This document shows positions 1 through 50,394 of a stretch of DNA of 64,000 nucleotides, piece after piece; position 1 is the first letter of the stretch, and every line of letters starts with the position of its first letter. Both the position numbers and the translations under genes were made by a program. Origin of the DNA: Carcharhinus amblyrhynchos (taxonomy: Eukaryota); contig OZ336878.1 in the NCBI GenBank assembly GCA_965287045.1, positions 43,586,001-43,650,000 of the forward strand, given 5' to 3'. A model generated the notes under the pieces. The model searched no databases and had not been told where the DNA came from. It saw nothing but the letters and a program-made list of their open reading frames with translations.

Positions 1-286
1 CACCCATGCAGCATCAAGGACCTGGGTTCGATTCCAGGCTTGGGTCACTGGCTGTGTGGAGTCTGCATGCTCCCCTCCCGCTGTCTGAGTGGCTTTCCTC
101 CGGGTGCTCCGGTTTCCTCCCACAGTCCGAAAGAGGTGCTGTTAGGTGCATTGGCCATGCTAAATTCTCCATCGGTGTACCTGAACAGGCACTGGAATGT
201 GGCGACTAGGGGATTTTTCACAGTGACTTCATTGCTCTGTTAATGTAGGCCTACTTGTTACACTAATAAGTAAACTTTAAACTTTC
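1..286 (+). mobile_element. tRNA-derived V-SINE (HE1-like), tail type B
   Basis: B-box GGTTCGATTCC, V-domain 'tttcctccgggtgctccggtttcctcccacagtcc', tail 'gggatttttcacagtgacttcattgc...ctaataagtaaactttaaacttt'; 5' end cut by window edge. Confidence 0.8.
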
Positions 287-390
287 TCCCCTATGTACTC
301 AATGAACAGTATACTTTGTCTGTATGATGCACAAGAAGCAATACTTTCCACTGTATACCAATTCATGTGACAATATTAAATCAAATCAAA
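287..390 (+). mobile_element. Rex1/Babar LINE 3' tail fragment
   Basis: Similar to the 3' end at ~58440-58545 ('atactttccactgt...tgtgacaat...aaatcaaatcaaa'). Confidence 0.6.
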
Positions 391-2560
391 GATAACAGGG
401 AGGGTGGTACATCTATCAATGTGCGTCAAGGATGTTGGAGGAAAGCGCAGCGGTGTTTGGGAGAGGGTATGTGGACATGGCTTTTATTACCCCAGTTAAT
501 GTTGCAGTCTTCATGCACATGGATGCATGAATGAGAAGAGAACTCATCTCCAGAATGGGCTTCATCATGGTGGGGTGGGGGAAGTCAATGGACAGGTCAA
601 TGCTCACTACAGGGCTTCACATTGGCTGAAATGCTTAAGGCTGGAGAAACAACTAAAAGGAAATGCTGACAATTTAGCCACAGATCACCTCTGGCATACA
701 TGGTGCTGGCTCCAAGCAACCCTGTACTGTAGTCCAGCTTTGGAGAAAGTAGCAACGGCATCAACTTCCTGTCTGCCTACTATGACATTCGTTATATCTA
801 ATGAGTTGACAAGATCGAGATTGCACGTGGCTCACTGTCACACCCCCATGCAGAAATCACTCTCGTGCTGCCCCACTTTCCAAACTATACTCCAGACTGG
901 AAGCTCCAGCCTAATCTCAAGTTGCATCAAACCAGTTCACTGTAACATAAAGTGAAAAAAATGAATGCCATGCCAATTCTCCACGGTTGGTTTCTGACCT
1001 TGGCCTGGGACACACCAGAAAAAATGTCGAGCATTTAGGAAATTGGAGGATATTTCTCTCATTGAAGTATTAGTGCCTAGCTATACAATAATTTGGAAAA
1101 GTTTTCACATGTACCTATTACACTGGTGAGAAAATGAAAGTAAAAGATCTGGAAAAACAAAATGTTAGTCTGCACATCACATCATTTTCAGTATTATATG
1201 TGAAGTCATGACAGTAATTGAGAATAGAGCAACTAAACATTATCCACTTACCAACCGGTCAACTGGTTTAAATGGACAATAAGGAATAACTTTGTCTTCT
1301 CCTCTGCCAGATGGATTACTGGGAATTGGAGAGATGAAACTATTAAAGAATATAAACATCCATTTTTGCACTACGCGCCATAAAAAGATTCATGGCTATT
1401 CCTTAGAATCGGGCCATTTCCATTTGCTGATAGTTACTAATTCCTTCAGTTGAGCTGCAATTAGAATCCAGTCTGCTTTGCAATTCCACAATGTTGTGCT
1501 ACATTAAATAGGCCCCAGAAGAATATTTTGGTCCTTCAAAATACTTTGAGGCATTTTTAGCTTCATTCCCATGAAGGGAGCATGTAATATATTTTTTTCC
1601 CAGGAATGTGAGGGATTGTAGTTCTCAGAACTCTCTGGAGCATGGTGGGAGTGTTTGTCAATGATTTCTTTGGCATTTCTTGGCAACTTAAAACAAAATT
1701 AACGCACAAGATAAACTTTTTTTTCTCCGTCACTTCTACTTTTGTATTGGATTCCATATTATTTTGATCTTAATTTCTAATAGTAAACTTGTCCAGTCCA
1801 AAAGCAAAATACTGGGGATGCTGGAAATCTGAAATAAAAACTGAAAATGCTAAACAACTTGAAGTGAAGAGGGGAGGTTGAGCGGGGGTGAAGGGAAGAT
1901 GTGTTATCTCATGCTAGAGTTGGCAGAACTGGTGAAGGATGAGGTTACTTAAAACTTACCTTTTTAGGCTTCCTTCTTGCTCCAGGCCATTTCCTTGCAA
2001 GCCACAAAACATAGAGACTCATAACCCAGCACAGTTCTCTGCATGCGGTGTCAGCCACATGTGTCATTAGTTGAAGGTAAGCCGCAGGAAACCATTACCC
2101 ATGTAATAGTTAACCCACTTAATCTTTAGCCTAAAAAATGGACTCCAAAATTGAACACTTACACAAGTATATATGGTACTAATTCATTGACACAATGAAA
2201 AATAATACATTGTCCCGTTGCCCCTCTGCACCCCCACAACCCTCGCCAGCCACTGGTCATAAGAAGGTCTTGGAATCAGGGAATTGATGGGCCAAATGGC
2301 TTCCTCTTGTGTCATAAATGTTCCAAAATTAATTAAATTGCATTGGATTGTAACCGTTCAGCAGATTCCTTGTTTCCTATGATACTTTTTTCTTATTTTT
2401 AAAGCAAACAAAATATTGGCAAAAAATGTGTAATGCAAGGTCATTTGAGAATGAAATTATATCAATCTGATTAACAATTTCTGAAAGTGTAGATCATTGA
2501 CGAAGACTCTCACACAAAAATAATATGCATTTCTAATTACACACAGTACATTAATTGCAG

Positions 2561-2762
2561 GTGGAGCATTTAGACAAGGCTTCTCCCTATATCCTCATCA
2601 ATCAAAGCCCAACTATAATTGACAATCTGAGAGATGGACGTTTTGGCATCTACATCACTGCCCGGAACTTAAAAGCCTCAGATGTGGACAGCAAAGATGA
2701 GGAGCTGATTTACACAATTCTCCGTCCACCTTACTATGGATATTTGGAAAGTACAACCACAG
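2561..2762 (+). CDS. FREM1: FREM1-family gene, first visible coding exon (last CSPG repeat)
   Basis: ttgcag|GTG..ACAG|gtactc; VEHLDKASPYILINQSP..GRFGIYITARNLKASDVDSKDEELIYTILRPPYYGYLESTTT matches FREM1 motif GIYITSRVLKASDPDT..GHLENTTTG; phase 0/1. May be a FREM1 paralogue. Confidence 0.92.
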
Positions 2763-3663
2763 GTACTCACTTAATTGGTACAAACATGAAAATCAAAGTA
2801 GTGACTTTCTAAAGAATTATAAAATTATTGTACAGTATTGTTTACAAGTAGCAATGCAGTCAGGTGCTTTGTTATAATGTGATATCTATCGTACATTCAA
2901 TTGTCTATTTGATAATTATCTTCTTTACAAACACATTATTTCTTAATATGTTAGAGATGGAAAACATTAGTGTGACTAGATTAGACTTAAGGAATCATGC
3001 GTACAAATCAGGTAGACCCCATCAGTAAAGCTAGGTGCAGTGCCATGATGTAGATCTTTTCCCACTTGTTCTCCTGTCATTTCAGGAAGCCTGCACCTAT
3101 CATCCCAACTCCCATGTTTGAGTGGTTCCATAGAAAAATGATGAAAATTAAGTTTCTATTAGTTTCAATACATTTACTTAGATTAATTTCCTCTCCTCTA
3201 TAAAGGAACTCACGTGTTTTATGAGGATGCACTAAGAACTTTACAACATTCTCTGCAAAATCACTGCGGAATTGGTCCTATACTCATTCCAATATGATTT
3301 GCATTGTTCTTCGTATTGAAATGTGAATTTCACCTAGTTTAGGTAGATTGCTATAGGCCACTGTACTAAAATGTTGGTTACAGATCACTTACAGCTCACA
3401 ATGAGTTGGAAGAAATCAAGCAAAAGTTTCTGCGTGGCACTGAATAGGCAGCCTTTTGGCTCAGATCAAACATTAGATCAAATCCAAGATGGGGTTCAAG
3501 GCCTTATCTTGTCAGCTTGGATCATGTTTGTCTTCCTCCTGGGAACCAATTTTGGATTCAGTTGGATTTACAAATAATATGTTAATAAATGTTACTAATA
3601 TCCCTTGCTTCAGTAATGATGAAGATGAATTATTTTGATGCCAAAGGGTTTATTTTATTGCAG

Positions 3664-3808
3664 GTGGATACATTCAAGGCACATTTACCCAGATAGAGGT
3701 GGACAGACGTACAATTCGCTATATCATCAATCCCTCTATAGAAGTGACATCTGACAGTTTTGAGTTCAAAGTATCTGACACTGCAGGAAACTCGAATGCA
3801 CCAAAAAT
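3664..3808 (+). CDS. FREM1: FREM1-family exon (end of last CSPG repeat)
   Basis: ttgcag|GT..AAAAT|gtacgt; GYIQGTFTQIEVDRRTIRYIINPSIEVTSDSFEFKVSDTAGNSNAPK; phase 1/2. Confidence 0.92.
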
Positions 3809-4664
3809 GTACGTTTGTAGAATGTCCAGTCTTCCAAACATTCTTCAGGGCAATCCCAGGCTTTTGATGTTTCAGGCAAATGAAACGCAAAAAAAGTTGC
3901 ATAGTGGAATTTGTTTTTTTCCCAGATGTGCTGCCTTGAAGTGATTCTGTTCTGTTTCTGTTTCCTCAAGGGGCAGTATTTTATATTAGGTGTGCAGTGA
4001 TGGTACATCTGGAAGCATGCATTTCATTTCCGGAGTGTGTAGGGCAGTGAGGTCTTCACACCTCTGTGATTAGTTACATGCTGAGAGTGTGCAGTCATGA
4101 GAATGGGAGATCTGATGCAGCAGTAGACATAAAAGGTGTCATTACGTCTAAAGGGACACGTATGATTTCAGCGGTGGAGGTTTGCAGCAGGAAACATTAA
4201 ATGAAACAGTTAGAATTTGAAGGCCCTGAGAGTAATGCTGAGCTGGGTGCAGCAAAGGGAATTGGTCATGTTGAGGTCAGGGGGTTCTCTCTTCAGCCAC
4301 TGTTGCTTGGAAAGTGGTATCATGAACAAAAAAGCCATAAATGCAGATGAAGCAAAACTTATTAGTCACCATAGTCAATGCATCCTTTGTGCAATTGCTT
4401 CAAACGTAATGAATGGCATGGCTGCAAAAGACACTTTAACCTCAAAGAACCACATCTTGACTTTGGGTGCATGTTGAACGTTTGGTAATGCCTTTCTCAC
4501 ATAATAGAAACACAGCCACTACTCATGCTTGACACACCTAACGTCCAAGGAAACTGGATCTTCTGGTTCCCAAGTGTTTGAAATAATGACATTTTTGGGC
4601 TGGAAATGCTGGAACTTCATTGAGTGTGTTTCTTACAGCTGGTGAACTGCATGGTACTGTTGCG

Positions 4665-5417
4665 TGGCATATTGTCAGCAGGCGACGGTGCAGAGGGACC
4701 TGGGGGCCCTTGTGCATGAGTCGCAAAAACCCAGCCTACAGGTGCAGCAGGTGGTCAGGAAGGCAAATGGGATGCTGGCCTTCATAGCGAGGGGGATTGA
4801 ATATAAAAGTAGGGAGGTCTTGCTGCAACTGTACAGGGCACTGGTGAGGCCGCAGCTGGAGTACTGTGTGCAGTTTTGGTCACCGCACCTGTGCAAGGAT
4901 ATTTTGGCCTTGGAGGGAGTGCAGAGGAGGTTCACTAGGCTGATACCGGAGTTGAGGGGGTTGAGCTATGAGGAGAGGCTGAATAGACTGGGTTTGTACT
5001 CGTTAGAGTTTAGAAGGATGAGGGGAGATCTCATTGAGACGTATAAGATGATGAATGGGATGGAGAGGGCAGAGGTGGAGAGGTTCTTCCCGCTCAGAAA
5101 GGACAGCAGGACTGGAGGGCACAGCCTCAAGATAAGGGGAGGGACAGTTTAGAACGGAGTTGAGGAGGAACTTCTTCACTCAAAGGGTGGTGAATCTCTG
5201 GAATTCTCTGCCCGTTGAAGTGGTTGAGGCTACCTCGCTAAATATATTTAAGACGCGGGTAGATATGTTTTTGGTAGGCAAGGGGATTAAGGGTTATGGG
5301 GAGAAAGCGGGAAAGTGGAACTGAGCCACAACAGATCAGCCATGATCTTATTGAATGGCGGGGCAGGCTCAAAGGGCTAGATGGCCTACTCCTGCTCCTA
5401 TTTCTTATGTTCTTATG
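4665..5417 (+). mobile_element. CR1 LINE 3' fragment inserted in the 3' LTR
   Basis: ORF2 end QRDLG..LYRALVRPQLEYCVQFWSP..RRMRGDLIETYK; tail 'cctactcctgctcctatttcttatgttcttatg'. Confidence 0.95.
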
Positions 5418-5546
5418 TACTTGACTGCAGTGTAGCAGTAAATATGGCACCCCAGATGTTCCTTCAGATCACAATTAGTTCCAAGCTCTCAAGAATAATA
5501 TATATATTGGAAGAGCATAATATATCCCTTTCTTTCAAAAAATATT

Positions 5547-6635
5547 GGGGGCGATTCTTCCAAAAGTGCTGAATTGGTGGAAAAACTTGTAGATCGCGAC
5601 TGTTTATTCAGCGTAACTTTAGACCTGAATCGGTGCAATGCAGAGGTCACAATCTTGAATCTCATTAAAAATCTGGGGGGGGGGTGGTGGGGTGGTGGTG
5701 GGGGCCTATTCACACTGGAATCTGACAGTTCCGGAACTCTGCGCATGCACAGTGGCCCCGGTCTGTCAGCCTCCCCATTTGCTGGCCAGCTCAATCGCTG
5801 GCCAGCCTGGGACCCCCGCAATGCTGCCCCTCCAGCACCCCCCATGATTCAATTGCAGCCCCCACAACAATTTCCAGGCCAACCCTGACCCTCCCCCCCC
5901 GCCCCCACCCCCCATCAAGCACTCTGATGTCCAGTCCACCCCAGCAGTGGTGATCCCCCCCCGCCCAGGGTCAGAGCCCCTCTGTTCACCACCCCCCCAT
6001 CCCCGGGAGGCAGGCCGCACCAATCACTGTCTTCCTTCCATGCCAGACAGATCCCAATGCAGAGAAGCAGCAGGACCCCACAACCCCACCAATCTCCCCT
6101 AGGCTCCGCCCAGAATAGACCATGCCCCTGACATCCAATGGGCAGTGCCAAGATACCCCCTGGGCATGGGCACTTTGCCCCTTGGGTAGCACCAGGGCCA
6201 CAGGCTGGCACTGCCAGAATGCGCACGCCCAGGGGTACCACCCCCCTGCACCCGACCCCCTGGGGGGGCGCCGACTGCCTCCCCTTCATTCAGGCAGGGT
6301 CTCCTGCTAGTTCCTGAATGTGGGAAGCTACTCTAAAACCCAGCTGGAATGAAGTATTCCTGGCCGGATGGGAGATTCTATCGGGCTCGGCAAGTTCTGT
6401 GCCGGGCCTGATAATCAAATGTAAAATTTATTTAAAATACTTCAAAAAAAGATTAAAATCACTTATCTCTCTTTCCGTCGGTTTCCAGCACGGTCTCGAC
6501 TTCGACTGTTCGATGGCTCTGGGAGATATGCATTCATCATGAAGGCATGTGCAAATCCTGCGAAATGGCTGACACACAATTTTCTATACCGAACCCACCA
6601 GAAAAGTTATGGGTCACAATGGGAGAATCGAGCCC
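5547..6635. mobile_element. GC-rich non-autonomous DNA transposon (PIF/Harbinger-like)
   Basis: Imperfect TIRs 'gggggcgattct'/'agaatcgagccc', 3-bp TSD ATT (5544-5546, 6636-6638), no coding capacity. Confidence 0.6.
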
Positions 6636-6789
6636 ATTGTTTCAGTATCTGATCCAATCATTACCTTTTTTATGCTGTGCCTTGCCTAAAGAAGATTAAT
6701 AATTGATGTTTATAATTAAACTGAACACTTTTAGAGCCTTTGCCATGTTTCCCTTTCTCAAAAACATCAGCCACTGTATTGCTAAAATG

Positions 6790-7603
6790 TTGTGCTGCTG
6801 CTTCTGAGTTAAAGCTGCACACACTGTAGTTGGTCTTTGGCTTCTTGTCAAGCGCTTCTTCATGAATCTGCAGCTTATGTTTCTATTCCAATGCGTGCAT
6901 CTTCCTTCCACTAGTTTTTCAGCTTCCTGCTGTGCCCACTCTGCTTGGCTTCTTACATTTTCGTGTTTCCTCTTTCAAACTCTCCAGCATTTCTTGCAGT
7001 TCGTTATTGGCCTCCAGTAATCATCCTCCCACTGGGATATAGTGTTAAACTGATCTTCACTTCACCAAGTTGCTGTCTGAAGTCAGCACTATTATTCTTT
7101 TCTTCTTAAGTCTCTTCTATTTGAAACACGTGCCGCTGAAGTTTTGAGCTGAGGTCCAGGAGCTCCCTCTTGGATGCCTCCTGTGCTCACAGTGCAGCCA
7201 GCAGTTTCTCTTCAGCATGCTTCCCTGCAGCTTGCCATGTTGGCCAGAATTCTCTGGCCGCTCGTGCCCACCACTGCTGCAAGAGAGGTTGGAGAATTTG
7301 GCGCTGAGCCAAATCCCCATTCACTGCAGCGGAACCAGAGAATTCCGCTGGTATGAATGGTCAGGGAATCACAGCCCTGATGTCTTCCTCAGCCTTCAAC
7401 CTTTCCAGATCAATAATTTTATTCTTTAGTTCTAACTCTTGGAGTGTTGTAACTTTTTGGAAATCTATTTCCTCAGCTCCCTGAACTTTCTGAATTAGCT
7501 TTCTTTCCTTTTCAGTCAAGAGATTTTTGTGTTTTTCAAAATTAGCCCTGAGAGTTTAGCTATCTGGCCTCAACCCATCTATTTAGCTTTGTGTGTTATC
7601 TAT
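6790..7603 (-). pseudogene. CEP83: Intronless CEP83 (CCDC41)-like coiled-coil fragment, disrupted
   Basis: Minus-strand translation across stops and frameshifts: NTQS*IDGLRPDS*TLRANFEKHKNLLTEKERKLIQKVQGAEEIDFQKVTTLQELELKNKIIDLERLKAEED..KHAEEKLLAAL*AQEASKRELLDLSSKLQRHVFQIEET*EEKNNSADFRQQL..NNELQEMLESLKEETRKC-RSQAEWAQQEAEKLVE..KHKL..AKDQLQ..AALTQK. Colinear with recalled CEP83 (IQSELDGLQSD..LVEKDRELIRKVQAAKEE..SQAEKAQLEAEK..KHKL..AKEKLQRAAIAQK). Confidence 0.82.
7242..7377. mobile_element. ~135-bp MITE interrupting the CEP83-like segment
   Basis: Same family as 9822-9955 ('gaattctctggcc..gagaatttg.cgct.agccaaatc.cc.ttcactgc'); removing it rejoins EEDI-TWQ. Confidence 0.65.
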
Positions 7604-7619
7604 CGAAACAATGGAATTT

Positions 7620-8197
7620 TCTTCTTCTTAGGCAGTCCATCAAGGTGGAGGATGATTTGCTTCCATGTTAGAAATGAGTTCTCAGGTCCGATACATGACC
7701 TACAGTCTCTGTCATAGGTTGGGCAGATAGAGATTGGAGAAGAGGGTGGATAGGGTGCCATGTCTTCCTTTTGCATCAACGCTTGGCTTCAGCTTGCTCT
7801 CGGTGATCAAACTCAAGGTGTTCAGCTTCTTCTCAGATGCTTTTCTTCCACTTCACATGGTCTTGGGCCAGGGATTCCCAGGTGCCTGTGGGGATTTTGC
7901 ACTTTTTCAAGGAGGCTTTGAGAGTATCCGTTTCCACTGGCCTCCTGAGACTGGCTGACCGTGTCAAAGCTCTGAGAAGCTTGTTTCGAGAGCCTCCTGT
8001 CAGGCATGTAGAGAATGTGGCCAGCCCAGCAGACCTTGAACGAAGGTGATCAATACTCCAATGCTGGGGATGTTAGCCTGAGCAAGAACACTGACGCTCG
8101 TGTCTGTCCTGCCAGTGGATTTACAGGATCTTGTGGTGGTATCCTCCAAGGTTTTGAGGTACTAGCTTTTGAGCCGTATAGGAGGGCAGACATCACA
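7620..8197 (-). mobile_element. RTE-clade LINE 3' fragment
   Basis: Minus strand VMSALLYGS..IHWQDR..SVLAQANIPSI..CWAGHILYMPDRRLSKQ; (GAA)n-like tail at 7620. Confidence 0.8.
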
Positions 8198-8319
8198 TGC
8201 CATGAATTTATCCAACATGTAGGTCTGTGACTCTGGCAATCACTTTCTTGCTTCTGATTGGAAGATGCTTTTCAATGTGTGTACTGTCTTTGGTCTTAAT
8301 TGCTGCCTCCTTCCTCTGT

Positions 8320-8640
8320 TAATATAAGCTGCCGCTCTTCACAACTGCTCAGTCTCAGGATGACAGGAGCATCTACCTCATTGATGTGGAACATACCGTT
8401 AATGGCTTTTCCTGTGATTTGACTTGTTCCTAGCTGTTGTATTTCAGTTCACTCGTCTGTTGTCAGTACGACATTGCTCGGTTTCAGAGCATCTTTTCTT
8501 GGATAACCATTTTCTTTCAATTTTCAGACAAAATTTTCTGGCATAGATCGAACGGGATGATGTTACTCTATTGTCTGGTATTGATCTTCAGATTGGCGCT
8601 TGTCGACTTGTTTTTCATCTGTCCCCTGATCAGAATGGTT
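8320..8640 (-). pseudogene. Gypsy aspartic protease remnant
   Basis: LKINTRQ*SNIIPFDLCQKI (decayed KIDTGAQxNILP, site at 8574-8582), LKPSNVVLT..IQQLG, PVILRLSSCEERQLI. Confidence 0.7.
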
Positions 8641-8691
8641 GTGTGAATCGCTTTCCTGTGGGAAGTGTCATATCCAGACAATTTATACAAT

Positions 8692-8761
8692 TCGCTCTCT
8701 GCTCTCTTCACAGATGCTGCCACGCCTGCTGAGATTTTCCAGCATTTTCTGTTCTTATTTC
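8692..8761 (+). mobile_element. Penelope-like terminal-repeat fragment (family 2)
   Basis: 'cacagatgctgcc..cctgctgagattttccagcattttctg' shared with 22830-22870 and 59470-59520. Confidence 0.55.
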
Positions 8762-8879
8762 ATGAAATTATACCATTCCTATGTCTACTGTTTTCTCAAA
8801 TTGTCATCATCTTCCAGAGTATGGATGTTTTGCTTTCTTTTCCTTCCCGTTCTACCTGTAGCTCTGACTCTGATGACTC

Positions 8880-9585
8880 ATTTCTCATCTTCGTTCCTTG
8901 TTCTGCACACCTCTAACCAGCATTCAGCCTTGGCACAATCTCTAAAATTTGATCTGTAAGCGTGACATTTTTTTCTGTCTGTGAAAACATGTAGTCACTC
9001 ACGACTCCTGTACATCTTTCTCCCTATTAGGTGTATGTTCCTTTGTGGCTTTTTCATTGCCCCAACCCAGCTGCCTTTCTTTGGCTTAACTGTAGACTAA
9101 CCATTTACATAGTCAGCATTTATGTCTTGACTACTCCTGGTAGTGTGTATATCCTGCAAAATTGTGAGCTTGTGCTTTTTAATCAAATTTTGTTTGTACT
9201 TCAGGATATGCAGAGCCCCACATGAGCTGATCTCTCAGCCTTTCACCTATTCTGTGAAATGTGCATTTCCTGACTGTACTCTTCAATCACTTGAGGGGAT
9301 TCATTTCTTCAGTTCACTCTAGGGGATTTTCACAGTAATTTCATTGAATGTTAATGTAAGCCTATTTGTGATGCTAATAAATAAACGTTAAAACTTTAAC
9401 CTCAATCTTGTTAAATTAAACAAGTTTCTCCTGCCCACAGAAGGATGTAACTGACCCTTTCCTTTCCACTATTGCCTTTTAGAAAGCTGTTAGATGTCAG
9501 TTTGCACTTTTGTTTAAACTTCTCAAATGCCTCCACAACCTCACCAGCTTCCCAAATTCATTTTGGGCTGCAGCTGAACTTTCAT
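8880..9585 (-). pseudogene. Gypsy gag remnant with Zn-knuckle relics
   Basis: MKVQLQPKMN-WEAGEVVEAFEKFKQKCKLTSNSFLKGNSGKERVSYILLWAGE; VRKCTFHRIGERLRDQLMWGSAYPEVQ; KCHAYRSNFRDCAKAECWLEVCR (decayed CPAYGxxCxxCGKxNHWxxVCR); SINE tail inserted at ~9318-9400. Confidence 0.78.
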
Positions 9586-9821
9586 TACTGCAACAGTAGC
9601 TATTTTCTTTTCACACTATTCACTCCGTTTTATTTTCACAATCTCTCTTTGGGCGCTAATTCAGATTGATTTTTCTCAATCTAATTTAACATTTGGAATG
9701 TTTGAGTTCTGGCCGTCCACTGTTGCCATGTTCTGTCGGGGGTTCCCAAGAGTTTGAAACAATCACACTTTCAGATTCAAAATGCTGGAACTTTGTTCCG
9801 TGCGCTCCATACAACACCCTG

Positions 9822-9955
9822 ACCGGAATTCTCTGGCCATTCAGTCCCCACCGCCACTGCCAGACAGGACAGAGAATTTGACGCTCAGCCAAATCTCCCT
9901 TCACTGCGGCGGGATGGGAGAATCCCGCTGACATGAACAGCCAGAGAGTTCCACT
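9822..9955. mobile_element. ~135-bp MITE inserted in the 5' LTR
   Basis: Similar to 7242-7377. Confidence 0.6.
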
Positions 9956-12510
9956 CCTCCCTGTGTTACTGTTGTTCTGATACGTTGTTGCTCAGCCTGT
10001 TTGCAGTGCAGCAGTAAATGTGGCACCCTGGATGTACATTTACATAATAATTCGTTCCCACACTCTGAGAAATAATGTCATAATATAACAGAAACTTTAA
10101 ATGCAGAGTTGAATGGTCCTACCTTCAATCTCATAGGTACAGTGCAGAGAGTAGTTAGAAAGCCAATCCAAATCTTGTGCACACTAGCTGTAAAGCCTCT
10201 TCTCAAGGTTTTCTCTCCAGATAAAATCTCTTTGGCTTAGACAGATCAGGATTCAATGTATGCATTCTTGGTTTGAATGGTTCTGCTCTGCGTGGGCACT
10301 GCATTTGCTCATCGTGCTGTTGAAGAACAATGAAATTGCTTTCTTTGATTGCTGTATTAGAAAGGGAACTATAATCTGAACATTACTGTCTGTGCTAAGC
10401 TCACAGCAGCAGTCTAGTTGGAATGTTATGAAACAACAATTTACTGAGTCTTGATTAGCCCTCATGTCCCATCTGTCCATTTGGTGAACAGTTCAGAATT
10501 ACTGTACGGTGAGTTTTATAGCTTGAGTGCTGTGGTGCTCCAGATGTGTATCACACTGATTAAACTTGTTATTGTTGGCAGATATCCTCAGTAGCCAGTG
10601 AATGCCCCATATTCCAAAGTTAATGCATTACATGTACATTATTATTCCGAGCTTCCACTACTATACTGCTTTGGCTTTGTGCATGAACCTTGCCTAATTG
10701 GTGGAGGGTAAGGGCTAGAAAATCACTGTGTAGGTGAAAATTAATGGGATGTGGCAAATATCGCTTCAAGCTCTGAAAGGCATTTAACCCATTGACAGCC
10801 AGCGATGAGAAAGGAGCGCCAAACAAAAATGAATTGAAAGACAACCCGATATGCAGACATGGAACAAACCCTTGCAAGTAAATGAGAGAGACGAGAATCT
10901 CACCCATGTTTCATGGGCAGCAACGTGGCTTTGTGTGCTGCTTGTTAAGGATGTGTATGTATACGTGCTTAGTGGTATTCACTCCACAAGAAAGCACAGC
11001 AGGAAGGAATTTGGGTGAATAGGGGTGAGAGACAGTGGTAGCGTTGAAGCAATGAGAAATTAGCAATGCTGCTTCCAGATGTCCCAGATGTCAATGTGTG
11101 AGCAGCAAAGGTTCTGCGTTTCCTAAATCTGCAATTTAATGGCCATAGTGGTGGCCCTTTCCATTGACTGAAAAGTCAGTAGAAACACCGCCAGGGCCAT
11201 TTCCATCAACCTGACAGGATTAAATGTCTATCAAGCAGTCAGCCACCTGTCATCAGCTTTCCCAGGCATTTGATGGTTGGCAACTCGTCAAAGCCAGCTT
11301 TATCACCAGCAGCAATGGCCCCATTAGGATTGCTAGAGGCTGCAACCAGCGATGGAAGCCCGTGGAGAGAGAGTGGGGTGGGATCGCCGGGGCCAGTCAG
11401 GGGGCTGCGTGTGGGGGCTTTGCCAAAGGATGCCTGATTTGGAAGCTTCCGCCCACCCCCCGACCAACTCCTCAGCCCACAGGGAGGCCGTCAGGGTGGA
11501 CTGGCTACCATTCCACGTAGTGAGTCCCACCCCTCCTGTTGGCTAAACACCAGATGCAGTGGGATTAGCTTCTAGTGATCTTTAACTGTTTAGTTGACCT
11601 ATGAGTGGGAAGGCCACACTCTAACCTTCTTGCCCCTTACTTAATTGGTGTGAATTGGGATGACACCAGGTTCCCAGCTCATACTTTCCCACCCAATTAT
11701 ACATTTCCCCCCTTGCCCGTCACCATGTCCTAGTCTCCCACCAGAGTAGGGGAGGGGGAGGGGATTGGGCATTCGCTTCCACCTCACATTTGCAAAGGAA
11801 AGCTTTGATCACAGATCACATTCCATACATTCATGCTCAGATCCTCCAGCACCACCTAGAGCCATCTTATGCTGGACTCCCATTCATTGTCACCTATCGT
11901 AAATAAGCTCTTAAAACAATTTTAAAATAAACTTGTCGTGGAAGAATGACTTGATTTGGCAACTGTTGCTGCTTTGTAGTTGTCCTTTGTTGCTGATATG
12001 TGACACCTGAGCTAATAGAAATGATGCACAAGTGATGCTGCAGTCCAGCACCCAAAAGGTCTTGTTTTGTGGCTGGTGAAATGGGTGCAGAGATGCATGC
12101 AGATGGTGCAAGCAGAATTGCCCTGGATGGCACTCACACTGTCCCCATAAAAGTGCAATGCAACATGCCTAACATGAGCATGGATCATTCACTGTAACAG
12201 CTGACTGACTTTCACAACATCTGGCAATGTTGCATAACACAAGGTGATCTCAGCAGAGAGTAGGCACACACAGCATCTGAGAAATAGCATTCAGAAAACT
12301 GCAATCCCGCTGCAGAAAAGCTGAGACTGCTGTATACACCTGGATGAATAACAGATGTAATATTGACTATCATCGTTGATTTGTATATGAATTGGTTGGG
12401 TGATTTTACTTATGATCTCTTTGTGGGATCTATATGGCTCTTTTACCTCTTATGACCAACAGGTGAGGATTCTATACCTTTTATTAAAGCAATGTTGAAA
12501 TTTTGTACAG

Positions 12511-22609: not shown

Positions 22610-22912
22610 CACATCTTCATCTGTCACAGCTTACCCTCTGATTTCAGTTTCTCTGCCATTCACACCCTTTATTCTCTCTATAGACTGCCATTAGCAGCAC
22701 TTCACCCTGATTTCTGTGGCTATGACTCAGTCCATCACCCCACAGTAAAAATATCTCCCACTTTCTATGCCTTTTAGCTTTGACAAAGGATCATCTGGAC
22801 TCGAAATGTCAGCTCTTTTCTCTCCTTACAGATGCTGCCAGGCCTGCTGAAATTTTCCAGCATTTTCTCTTTTGGGTTCAGATTCCAGCATCTGCAGTAA
22901 TTTGCTTTTATT
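22610..22912 (+). mobile_element. Penelope-like element 3' terminal repeat (family 2), degenerate
   Basis: 'ttgacaaaggatcatctggactcgaaatgtcagc..cagatgctgccaggcctgctga..ttcagattccagcatctgcagtaatttgctttt'; reverse fragment at ~1795-1860. Confidence 0.6.
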
Positions 22913-24493: not shown

Positions 24494-24794
24494 AAAGTTT
24501 ACTTATTAGTCATAAGTAGGCTTACATTAACACTACAATGAAGTTACTGTGAAACTCCCCTAGTCGCCACATTCTGGCATCTGTTTGGGAACACAGAGAG
24601 AATTCAGCATGGCCAATGCACCTAACCAGCATGTCTTTTGGACTGTGGGAGGAAACAGAGCGCCTGGAGGAAATCCATGCAGACGTAAGGAGAATGTGCA
24701 GACTCTTAAGAGATACTCACCCAAGTCAGGAAACGAACCGGGGCCCCTGACACTGTGAGGCAGCAGTGCTCACCATTGTACCACCATGCTGTCC
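24494..24794 (-). mobile_element. V-SINE, tail type B
   Basis: Reverse head, V-domain and 'gtaagcctacttatgactaataagtaaactttg' tail. Confidence 0.8.
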
Positions 24795-25004
24795 TGAACT
24801 TACAGTGAACTGCAACACTACCTCCATCACCCTGCAGACATTCGGACCCCACTACCTCATTGGAGGCATGCTCATGAGCATCGGGGCTCTCCCAATGAGT
24901 CACAGTCCCGCTCAGACTCCACTGTCCTGGCACTGCCCTGTCACACTGGCAGTAAAAAATCTGACAACACCAGGTTTTAGTCCAACCTATTTATTTGATA
25001 ATAT

Positions 25005-25045
25005 ACTCACAAGCTTTCGAGGGACACCCTCTTCGTCAGGTGAAT
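25005..25045 (-). ncRNA. Minimal type I hammerhead ribozyme motif (mirror copy)
   Basis: Reverse complement of 25694-25734. Confidence 0.7.
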
Positions 25046-25693
25046 GGAGAGTTCTGGCCTCAGACAGAGCATATAAAGCACAGACAGTTTAGAGATTACT
25101 GATTAGAATGCAAATCTTTACACCTAACCTGCTGTTCAAGACCTGAAGTGGCTGATAATGTGAGTGGAAGGAGCACTGATCACAGTTTAAAGAGATGTGT
25201 ATTGTCTCCAGACAGTACAGTAAGTGAGGTTTTGCAAACCCAGGCAAGTCACGGGGGTTACAGATAGTGCGACATGAACCCAAGATCCCTGTTGAGACCG
25301 TCCTCATGTGTGCGGAACTTGGCTATCAGTCTCTGTTCAGCGACTCTGCGCTGTCGTGTGTCATGAAGGCCGCCTTGGAGAATGCTTACCCGAAGGTCAG
25401 AGGCTGAATGCCCGTGACCTTATGAAATCACATGAGGACGGTCTCAACAGGGATCTTGGGTTCATGTCGCACTATCTGTAACCCCCGTGACTTGCCTGGG
25501 TTTGCAAAACCTCACTTACTGTACTGTCTGGAGACAATACACATCTCTTTAAACTGTGATCAGTGCTCCTTCCACTCACATTATCAGCCACTTCAGGTCT
25601 TGAACAGCAGGTTAGGTGTAAAGATTTGCATTCTAATCAGTAATCTCTAAACTGTCTGTGCTTTATATGCTCTGTCTGAGGCCAGAACTCTCC

Positions 25694-25734
25694 ATTCACC
25701 TGACGAAGAGGGTGTCCCTCGAAAGCTTGTGAGT
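25694..25734 (+). ncRNA. Minimal type I hammerhead ribozyme motif
   Basis: AUUCAC-CUGACGA-A-GAGGG(UGU)CCCUC-GAAA-GC-UU-GUGAGU: core boxes, 5-bp stem II, 6-bp stem I, palindromic AAGCUU in place of stem III. Confidence 0.72.
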
Positions 25735-26662
25735 ATATTATCAAATAAATAGGTTGGACTAAAACCTGGTGTTGTCAGATTTTTTACTGTGTTTACGCCA
25801 GTCCAACGCCGGCATACCCACACACTGGCAGTGGCCAACTGATGCTGCCTGGCCACCCAACTGGCATTGCCTGGGTGTCGGATGGCCACTGCTGGGGTTC
25901 CAAGTGGGCCCTACCAGGTGGGCATTGCCCGATGGGCACGACCCAGCCATGGCTCCAACTACAGTATGTGCGTGAGTCTGTGTGTGCATATGCATGTGTA
26001 TGTGTGTATCTTTTGGGGGTGGGGGCGTGGTAGGAGGTGAGAGAGGAACATATCAAGCTCCAAGAAGCCATCCAGCAGAGCATAAATATTGATGGAGGTG
26101 AACATTCCAACCCTGCACTTACATCAAACCTGGCATGGTGATGCTGAGTTGGCAATCCAATGTCATCACGCTGGTCTCCAATAGTACAGAAGATAGGTAG
26201 GTGTCAAAACTGGCAGCCTGCCCATCATCATAAACTAATTAAGCTTATTAGCAACCCAATAGACTGTTACTTGGCATTGTCTATTCCATTTTTCAGGTTG
26301 AAAGACTGCAAGTGGGACTAAGGCCACTTCTAGCAGTAGACTGTGCTGGTGAAGATGGGAGAGTTTCTCAGTTCTTTTAAATTAATTTAATAATTGATAT
26401 TCAGCCTGAAGTAGGAGATATTGTCAGGGAAGAAAGCCGACTTCTTCAGGCTAAGCTGAAGTTTTTAGATTCCAGTATTGGACCCAGAGATTACTGTCCA
26501 CCCTGGGCATTGTCCACTCTGGAGGAGACTGCTCTTCCAGTGAGGAGGAGAAGGGGGAGGGCAGCTGGCCAATGACAGGTGTGCCCTGTAGTCCAGCAAG
26601 GTGAGGAACCTGCTGCTATGCAAATGGGTGGTGAGAAGACACATCAACAGCAGGCAGAGAGA

Positions 26663-47269: not shown

Positions 47270-48690
47270 TCCATTTCCAAAGACTGAGTGCTATAACTGC
47301 AAGAAGAAGAATCATTGAAGGCATGTTGAAAAAATATAAACAAAGAAAACTCTGACTGGATGGGATGGCAGTCACTGCATATGGTGTTAATCAACAGCAG
47401 GTCAATGTGGGGTCAATGAGAAAATCCCCATAATCTCCATGTACTGGTTCCAGTTGCACACAATTATCAATGTGTAAAATTGTCCATCATTGTCATGAAG
47501 GGTGAAAACCCAGCATAGCTAACAAGAGATACAAGTAAAACTGGAATGAGATGTTTCACATAGAAGCAAAGTTTACAATGTAGGACAATGTAATTGCCAA
47601 GTCTTGAGTGTCACCAGTAAACCTTCAAAGATGCAAAGCCAATGTACAGCTTCAAAGGAGCATTAGACCCATTTACTGCAGGCCCCATCCAGTACCTATT
47701 GCTCTAAGGTAAAAAGTAGAGGCAAGAGCTGAAAAAACTTGAGACTAAGAACACAATCTCTGAAGTAGAACAGTGTAATTGAACTACTCCCATCATAGTA
47801 GTATCAAAGCTGGATGGTAGTGTAAGATTATGCTGATATTATAAGGAATGTACTGAAACGTAATCAACCCGCTACTTTGCCAGCTGTGAAGCATCTGTTC
47901 ACAATCTTGCTGGGAGGCCAAATTTGTTCAAAATTAGATCTAATAAATATTGACCTGCAACCTGAATCGGACCATGAATCTAAGTCTTATTTGACCATTA
48001 ATATACACTTGGATCTGTTTCAGTTTCATAATTTAAGCTTAAGTTTATTTTTTAGTGCCAACAGTAGGCTTACATTTACACTGCAACAAAGTTACTGTGA
48101 AAATCGCCTAGTTGCCACACTCCATGTCTGTTTGGGTACATTGAGGGAAAATTTAGCATAGCTAATGCACCTAACCAGCACATCTTTCAGACTGTGCCAG
48201 GAAACTGGAGCACCTGGAGGAAATAGACTGCCATTGGTGTTTCTTCAGCCCTAAGAATTTTTCAAGGAGTAATGAAGCAGATTTTGCAAGGAATTCAGGG
48301 AGTAGTGTTCTCTTTGAAAGAAGTAATTTTTTCAGCTCTAAACAGGCAGACCCATAACAGGCTGAAAAAGGTGCTCCAATGCTTGGAAAAGCATCGAGTT
48401 TTGGCAAAAGCACAAATGATTCAAAATGCTATAGAGTATTTGGGTCACAGGGCAGACAAAGATGGATTACATTCTACCAGGACTAAGGTTCAAGCAATAA
48501 GAAAAGCACTGCACACTCAGAATATTTCTAAGCTTGGATATTTTTGGGCTTCTACAGTAAGTTTATACCAAATGTGCAATCGTATTGCATCCATTGAATG
48601 GGCTCTTGAGGGAGTTCCATGGAATTGGACAAGTGAGTGTAACAAGGCATTCCAGTTGTGTGAAACCAAATTAGTAGGTTATTCCTCTTG
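47270..48690 (+). mobile_element. Degenerate Gypsy gag-pol fragment with inserted SINE (~48035-48225)
   Basis: CYNCKKKNH Zn knuckle; RT-like PHPVPIALR*KVE, TPIIVVSKLDGSVRLC, CSKLDL, MKQILQGIQGV, IEYLGH. Confidence 0.8.
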
Positions 48691-50394
48691 ATAAAGATTT
48701 AACAGCCCATAACTTGTTTCTGAACTCATATTTGTAAACACATACAGAAGGAGTTCAAGATCTGAGTAATGAGATGAATGAGAAACAAAATCTCTACTGC
48801 CTTTCAACTGCTCTTGCTCACACATATACTCAAATCTACTTTTTGATAACTATTTGCTCTTACTGAGTCAAGAGACCACAGCACGTTTCCAAGGGTCCAA
48901 ATCCTAATTTCGGTTGATGTTCAGATCTGCCAGTTAAGTATACAATAAAGTTGCATGTTTTTTTATATGTTCCGGGGATGTGGGCGTTACTGGCTGGGCC
49001 AGCATTTATCACCCATCACTGAGGAGATTTAAGAGTCAACTATATTGCAGTAGATCTGGAGTCACATTTAGACCAGACAAATCTCCTCCCCTTGAGGACA
49101 ACTCGCTCGCCATGGCCCACTGCGATTCCATGGCAGGCAAGGTGAATATCGCAGGATATTCAGATAGGATTTACAACAATCAACAATGGATTCATGGCCA
49201 TCATTAGACTTTTAATTCCAGATTTTGTTATTGAATTCAGATTTCACCATCTGCCATGGTGGGATTCAAACCTGGGTGTCCAGAGCATTGCCCTGGGTCT
49301 CTAGATTATTAGTCCAATGGTAAAACCACAATGCCACTGCCTTATTTTAGCTCTGCCAATCAAGTAGATAATTAAGATGGTACCAGGACACTGCCCAATG
49401 CATTCTTGATGCCGTCACTTCCTCTGCACACTTTTAGTGACTTTAAGGCCTCCCACTGCAGGCGATCTGGAGCCTCATTTATATCTTTCAGACTCCACTG
49501 TGATTTTAAGTGCTGATTGAGACAGTGATGACAAGTGCTGGAGCCAAATGTGAAAGTTTGCAGAGAGCAGAATTGTGATTAGAGTGATAAATTGATATGT
49601 TTTAAATTCTTTTAAGATTAATTATAGTTTAAAAGGAGTAAGAGTAATCTTTCAGGCCCCAGAAGGAAACTTTAAGAGTTCCCTGCTCATGTCTCCCAAA
49701 CCGTGATTGTGCCTTTTACCATTGGTCTTAGTATCAGGATCTTTTAACTTGGGATCCCTGATAGCCTCCTGCTATCCAAAATCCCAATCCTACACCCACA
49801 GGCCTTCTCATCAGTTACTGGATACTGGTTTTTTGAATGGTTTTAAGACTTCTGAAGTTCACAATGAAGGAAACTGGACACCCACCTCAACCATTACATG
49901 TCACGCTTAAATCCCTGAATTAAAATCTAATCTGTGGAAATAAGTCTGGAGTGGAAACAGGAAATCTAGAATAATGGAAGAAATAGAAAAGTTGCCATGA
50001 CCTTTCTTGTATGATGGCAGCCAAGTTTCCCCATCCCTGTTTCTCTACCTACTTCTGTTAATGTGATCAAATCGAGAAATGTGCCTTCCTTATATTGCTT
50101 AGAAGTCAGCAATGATTCTTATATTTTGACATGTAGGGCAAGATTTTACAGCCTTCCTCAAGTGAGGAGATTTCCATTGCCGAAACCTCGTCCGCTGTGA
50201 TTCTATGGCAGGCCAGATGGTGGAGTTCTGGCGGTATAATTCAGCAATATCACAGGATATTCAACTCATTGGAAACATTTGCAATCAATTATGCATGTAA
50301 ATGATACAATTTACTTCATGTTCAATTGTAATTTTTCATTTAATCCCTGTAAGTCAAATCAGGACTTAATTCAGGCCATAAGACAGGGCTTGAA

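Follow-up and report, generated by a model that had tools for sequence, protein, structure and literature searches.

Transducing retroviruses carry gag-onc fusions in which a spliced piece of host coding sequence replaces pol in frame with the viral ORF upstream, and they need a helper to replicate. LTR-mediated retrocopies of animals have been described by Tan et al. (2016; PMC5131818). In the portion of PMC3597677 consulted here, which deals with host fragments in transposons, the string "centrosom" did not occur. No report of a CEP83-carrying element was found in the CEP83/retrotransposon and shark-genome literature, a scope that excludes most subscription journals and the repeat databases, and CEP83 was not mentioned in the shark-genome papers on retrocopies and LTRs that were listed. 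The chimera described here represents a gene capture of a known kind in an element that is itself probably unreported.

We analyzed a 64,000-nucleotide stretch of cartilaginous-fish DNA (the window), in which the fusion of a Gypsy element with a piece of CEP83 is real. The CEP83-carrying chimera occupies the minus strand from 10090 to 4555 as a complete LTR element with a 5-bp target duplication. It is antisense to the host gene in whose intron it lies; the exons of this gene (3639-37454, plus strand) give cadherin-like and C-type lectin matches, and we take the gene to be FREM1. Further along the window, a 361-nt inverted repeat with 100% complementary arms 118 nt apart (24950-25789) overlaps an apparent host exon (24751-25092) and either arose by very recent duplication or is an artefact of assembly. 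The components of the element are as follows, in its own 5' to 3' direction.

10091-10095, minus strand: left copy of the 5-bp target-site duplication, GTTTC, identical to the 5-mer at 4554-4550
9729-10090, minus strand: 5' LTR, starting with TG and ending with CA, about 225 nt without its insert
9820-9958, no strand given: later MITE-like insertion in the 5' LTR, missing from the 3' LTR, with a terminal inverted repeat, 75% identical to 7241-7378
9713-9728, minus strand: primer-binding-site-like sequence, with TGG immediately after the CA of the LTR
8896-9590, minus strand: decayed gag, by tblastn to the N-termini of intact Gypsy polyproteins and collinear weaker blocks
9319-9408, no strand given: later SINE-like insertion within gag, repeated elsewhere in the window
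8694-8762, no strand given: short repeat inserted between gag and protease, with further copies at 22812 and 59153
8323-8594, minus strand: decayed aspartic protease, with an active-site block (8594-8532, triad decayed) and a C-terminal block (8391-8323) in different registers
8244-8322, minus strand: what is left of the protease-RT linker, about 50 codons short of the reference length
8203-8243, minus strand: first motif of RT, its frame broken once near 8224
7620-8197, minus strand: later insertion of a LINE 3' end with a visible (AAG)n tail, its 5' edge uncertain by about 6 nt
7601-7618, minus strand: six-codon spacer continuing the RT motif in the frame of CEP83, with the Gypsy/CEP83 switch at its 3' end
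6786-7600, minus strand: intron-less internal CEP83 fragment, corresponding to residues 376 to about 607 of the Cetorhinus protein P0020 and 335 to about 566 of the Scyliorhinus protein
7241-7378, no strand given: MITE-like insertion of 138 nt that interrupts the CEP83 fragment after P0020 residue 451
5553-6635, no strand given: later 1.1-kb insertion bounded by inverted repeats (arms 5540-5562 and 6620-6642)
5525-5536, minus strand: polypurine tract, by sequence, preceding the 3' LTR
4555-5524, minus strand: 3' LTR, interrupted at about 5422-4690 by a CR1-like insertion
4550-4554, minus strand: right copy of the 5-bp target-site duplication, GTTTC, flanking the end of the 3' LTR

The element has the hallmarks of Ty3/Gypsy elements, namely TG...CA LTRs, a primer-binding-site-like sequence, a polypurine tract and a target duplication within 4-6 bp. 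The LTRs matched each other in two blocks, 10076-10002 against 5499-5426 (75 nt, 77% identical) and 9813-9741 against 4637-4565 (73 nt, 75% identical); the first bases of the 3' LTR have decayed, and its last 4 nt align inexactly with the end of the 5' LTR. Seven later insertions account for about 2830 of the 5536 bases, their boundaries being approximate. An Rfam search of 4400-10300 returned no match. The 138-nt MITE family has just two copies within the 64 kb (7241-7378 and 9820-9958), both inside the Gypsy element, and is also found in the library protein P0002, about eight codons from the site it occupies in the CEP83 piece of the window; this distribution may reflect a target preference or the existence of many copies.

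To obtain Gypsy references, genome contigs were scanned with a degenerate RT-motif pattern, yielding five loci. Two of these, L001 and L005, each encode an entire polyprotein in a single ORF (1336 and 1361 aa) containing RVT_1, RT_RNaseH, Integrase_H2C2 and rve domains, with the RT-RNase H-integrase order present. Gag and pol thus form one ORF in the Gypsy clade of the element (two of two full-length references). The two ORFs, complete and of animal type, are borne by contigs of bacterial MAGs in GTDB (L001 at 113-4123, L005 at 460-4545), most likely as host contamination.

The gag, protease and RT sequences of the element are homologous to those of Gypsy elements and stand in Gypsy order. The gag N-terminal match at 9569-9426 gave tblastn E values of 1e-5 and 3e-5 to two intact Gypsy polyproteins, evidence that is independent of the RT-motif pattern used to fetch the references. 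The score of the protease active-site block (8594-8532) was reached by 5 of 3000 random segments, and that of the C-terminal block (8391-8323; 36.0) by 2 of 3000. The peptide PVILRLSSCEERQLI, which the initial annotation had read as the protease end, corresponds to this C-terminal block, running up to 8323 on the minus strand. Between the LTRs no RT, RNase H or integrase was left (best E 0.36), and on this ground the CEP83 piece has taken the place of a part of the internal ORF and does not merely split it. Pfam searches in six frames and with 13 short pieces of the element (plus four from a second Gypsy remnant) revealed no relevant family, a word-seeded search with the gag piece alone gave 0 matches among 5 candidates, a PDB sequence search with the protease region gave chance intein matches only, and ESM Atlas gave no usable match for gag. 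The second remnant, separate and likewise decayed, lies at 47500-48700 on the plus strand and comprises a linker and RT (E 3e-6 to 1e-5 against the reference RTs).

The captured part of CEP83 spans about residues 335-566 of 691. Its match starts at 7600 with all 14 chondrichthyan CEP83 proteins tested (one per species, taken from 17 rows). A HMMER search with 7618-7043 against 1.84 billion representatives yielded 15 matches, and a profile search yielded 491 among 7999 candidates, of which the 120 listed comprised 108 named CEP83, 1 uncharacterized and 11 unnamed proteins; no Pfam domain was present in these 120 of 491. A word-seeded search with the CEP83 piece alone gave 0 matches among 110 candidates, and a PDB sequence search gave nothing. 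The nearest hosts are chondrichthyan, with 105-121 of 186 residues identical compared with 91/186 for turtle, and the best amino-acid identity to the closest hosts is 121/186 (65%). Other parts of CEP83 were not found between the LTRs.

Splice points were located from two kinds of evidence. Five short fish-like ORFs align only to about residues 341-391 of turtle CEP83 (two more exon-limited ORFs were excluded as possibly mammalian), and an exon-skipping protein, P0003, enters at the same start and exits at 519; together these point to three splice points. The window copy runs continuously over all three without an intron, indicating that the CEP83 piece is mRNA-derived. The piece is internal, cut at both ends and without poly(A), no A-run longer than 6 following it, and the region 3' of it (6786-6636) matches neither CEP83 nor reference pol. 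A two-codon deletion at 7436-7435, at the end of an inferred exon, is due to chance or to a splice variant. The start of a 333-aa tree-shrew "CEP83-like" protein (P0016) corresponds to Scyliorhinus residue 344, close to that of the captured piece; this protein has an apparent internal repeat and is probably a partial gene model.

Next to CEP83, the Gypsy sequence ends within RT. The first RT motif (8243-8203) scored 34.2, a value reached by 0 of 970 null segments. The peptide HLPIRSKKVI, which had been taken as the linker preceding RT, is present on the minus strand at 8267-8238, but its score as a linker (16.0 against a four-row reference block) was at chance level, being matched by 54 of 500 random segments, and the linker reading was rejected; the overlapping bases fit the first RT motif. 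This peptide and the protease end are both on the minus strand, as annotated, but in different registers. The linker itself measures 50 codons between landmarks that are 98-103 codons apart in the references, and a PRRVP-like block at 8293 fitted only when one column was omitted (score matched by 2 of 3000 random segments, compared with 290 of 3000 ungapped).

The RT motif is interrupted by the LINE-like insertion (8197-7620, 578 nt), which from its motifs and its tail we presume to belong to the RTE clade; Pfam supplied no family name for it and ESM Atlas gave unnamed clusters only. The hexamer AAATTC flanks it (8209-8204 and 7619-7614), a borderline target duplication with a chance of 2-4% when anchored, an unanchored test being at chance level (4507/20000). 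Judged from the sequence, the LINE piece is an insertion inside the RT motif that followed the capture of CEP83. The six codons between its tail and CEP83 (7618-7601) scored 12.5 against the RT motif, which 3 of 50000 random segments reached at fixed frame and column and 734 of 50000 (1.5%) with 3 frames and 9 columns free; these and the other RT-motif values are to be read with the caveat that the motif tests were picked after inspection of the window and that the reference RTs had been selected by means of the motif itself. The other two frames of the spacer scored at most 1.0 against the RT motif, and its codon scores against CEP83 were zero or negative. The fit begins at the column where the left flank of the insertion stops, as the target duplication predicts.

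The spacer thus continues the RT motif in the frame of CEP83, placing the switch a few codons inside RT. RT and CEP83 share one frame, with no indel across 55 further codons, and as far as the bases can be read the junction is locally in frame from the RT motif to CEP83. The annotated position at the start of RT is therefore supported, except that the switch lies inside the first RT motif and not at the protease linker; CEP83 similarity does begin within a few codons of the insertion and in the same orientation, 18-20 nt after the tail at about 7620. At the junction, three of four reference RT motifs read Glu-Lys where CEP83 reads Asp-Asn; under the genetic code, GAR-AAR and GAY-AAY are identical at 4 of 6 bases. 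An in-phase microsimilarity at the 5' switch is likely, judged from codon phase rather than from host or parent-element DNA.

The element has since decayed. Across 190 aligned codons its CEP83 fragment shows 4 stops, and its reading frame is broken at least 5 times. The divergence of the LTR pair is 0.14 +/- 0.025 per LTR, and simulated neutral decay at 0.145-0.20 substitutions per site, run without CpG effect or host drift, produced 3.3-4.7 stops. In this simulation an amino-acid identity of 65% corresponds to about 0.2 substitutions per site, slightly above the LTR-pair figure. Since the stop count falls within the simulated range, the decay looks neutral, with no sign that the piece was protected once integrated; any selection that acted earlier would leave no trace in a single copy.

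Four library proteins (P0002, P0004, P0005 and P0013) are other decayed, frame-broken and intron-less pieces of the same CEP83 stretch. As protein sequences without flanks, they are 69-80% identical to their best host compared with 49-60% to the window copy. The window copy shares at most 3 derived residues in 83 columns with any of them; in simulations, 3 or more were shared by about 40% of independent pairs and 5 or more by 7-9%. A closer tie to P0005 was considered on account of its 3 shared derived residues and a tail fit of 7/9 (5-6/9 for hosts) and was not accepted. In a tree of copies and hosts, all nodes placing the copies had a support of 20-60% and the copies did not group; with such low support the tree defines no clade and gives no date for them. 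The four pieces may be paralogous copies of the element, deep orthologues or separate retrocopies.

The structure of the element, its intron loss, the replacement of pol, the local frame and the decay are direct observations; to account for them we favor, with a probability of roughly 0.78, an LTR-mediated retrocopy formed by template switching, the in-frame junction being a by-product of codon-phased microsimilarity. In the germ line of an early shark or elasmobranch, a Gypsy particle would have taken up a spliced CEP83 mRNA together with its own RNA. By two template switches, the reverse transcriptase would have put 0.7 kb from the interior of the CEP83 coding sequence in place of about 840 pol codons (RT beyond its first motif, RNase H and integrase). 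The 5' switch would have occurred where the Glu-Lys codons of the RT motif were in phase with the Asp-Asn codons of CEP83, a phased similarity that would by itself yield an in-frame junction. The product would have retained both LTRs, the primer site and the polypurine tract, and would have been integrated, antisense in the intron, by enzymes of a helper element. If its donor was intact, the new element would briefly have encoded Gag-protease-RT stub-CEP83. The copy would afterwards have decayed neutrally and gained seven more insertions.

Whether this capture gave rise to a fusion polyprotein, as the initial annotation suggested, was considered separately. In a clade with a single ORF, an in-phase junction means that an intact donor would yield a Gag-protease-RT stub-CEP83 reading frame, and we regard it as somewhat more likely than not that this frame was continuous at formation. 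The present copy has no continuous ORF from gag to CEP83, owing to many stops, frame breaks and insertions. With about 50 linker codons missing and so many frame breaks, a one-frame state at capture is unreadable from a single copy. The statement that the frame cannot be established accordingly holds for gag-protease-RT continuity at capture, but not locally, where the spacer makes it readable. The proposed fusion is likewise supported at its junction, but no fused Gag/CEP83 protein was present among the 15 HMMER matches or the 120 of 491 profile matches listed, all predicted proteins.

A less likely course, which we hold to be doubtful, is the same capture with a fusion that could never be translated, either because the donor was already short of the roughly 50 linker codons and carried a frame break or because the spacer is merely RT-like. 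Three shifts of register separate the end of the protease from the tryptophan of RT, and with frame and column free the spacer score is reached by the 1.5% of random segments given above, both of which agree with this course. However, frame breaks are equally dense in the CEP83 piece, which originated from an intact mRNA, so that the majority probably arose after integration, and the spacer fits at the exact column and frame predicted by the target duplication (3/50000).

That the fusion was selected is very unlikely. A non-autonomous Gypsy family would then have spread because Gag-protease-CEP83 helped it, for example in particle assembly at the centriole. In its fuller form, which we judge equally improbable, a family with in-frame Gag-protease-RT stub-CEP83 would have arisen near the shark base and spread to many loci, selected because its coiled coil brought particles or RNA to the centrosome of germ-line cells. 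The five decayed copies, which branch off close to the elasmobranch CEP83 base without any supported grouping, would then be relics of a burst. The in-frame junction in a single-ORF clade accords with such a family, and many copies are hinted at by the four other intron-less pieces, of which P0002 has the same MITE family inserted at a site about 8 codons more 3', the best-scoring of 1452 windows. By chance alone, however, one third of junctions would be in frame, and more with phased microsimilarity; the derived residues shared among copies are no more than expected for many independent pairs; and the database matches are bound to the captured stretch, which was all that the query spanned. 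In Ty3/Gypsy elements, moreover, the protease releases domains in the pol position, which lie inside the particle, and a domain at the RT position would be expected to fare likewise. In the sources as far as consulted, foamy-virus capsids assemble at and travel to centrosomes via motifs of Gag itself (PMC7828637), a precedent for the targeting idea, whereas the long coiled coil of CEP83 extends across the distal appendage (PMC11984956) and the captured part is the middle of that coil, and no paper was found in the CEP83 literature consulted showing that this part targets centrioles alone. Nothing shows that the in-frame fusion was useful, and the suggestion that it was selected or directed particles to centrosomes is unsupported, the decay fitting neutrality.

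The least probable account is a LINE-made CEP83 processed pseudogene (or an RTE-CEP83 chimera) landing in a resident Gypsy element, with deletions later taking pol and the 3' end of the retrocopy: LINEs are abundant in the window, one LINE 3' end lies 18 nt from the CEP83 piece and the four other decayed pieces could be ordinary retrocopies, but RT-like codons stand between the LINE tail and CEP83, there is no poly(A), CEP83 3' end or pol remnant, at least one additional large deletion is required, and the LINE-tail-then-mRNA order of the window is the opposite of that in LINE chimeras.

As an LTR-mediated retrocopy, the element represents a very old capture in a cartilaginous fish in which both LTRs, the target duplication and the 5' switch are still readable and the junction is in the phase of pol. 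If it proved to exist in many copies that share these junctions, with the CEP83 part under selection, it would be a retrotransposon using a centriole scaffold domain; otherwise it is a well-preserved dead retrocopy.

Compared with the single-ORF Ty3/Gypsy elements L001 and L005, it has the Gag N-terminus, the protease blocks and the first RT motif in the same order, but unlike these intact elements it has lost everything after that motif. It differs from the transducing retroviruses in being no retrovirus, in having no env and in showing no sign of selection on the host piece. Maize Bs1, as presented in the sections of PMC5131818 drawn on here, is likewise an LTR element with spliced host coding pieces in its internal region; Bs1, however, combines pieces of three genes, exists in 1-5 copies whose switch points are shared and is backed by protein evidence, whereas the window element carries one gene and is dead. 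The closest likeness in those sections is to the LTR-mediated retrocopies of animals, which share with it a partial, doubly truncated piece of spliced mRNA replacing part of the internal ORF, both LTRs, the sense orientation, the absence of poly(A) and a genic insertion site. Loss-of-function changes are also shared with the older of those retrocopies (14 of 21 older copies). The window element is much older, with LTRs about 24% different, and comes from a cartilaginous fish, a group outside that study (the word "shark" does not occur in the sections drawn on). Frame is discussed there relative to the parental gene and not as a gag-pol fusion, whereas the junction in the window is in phase with RT.
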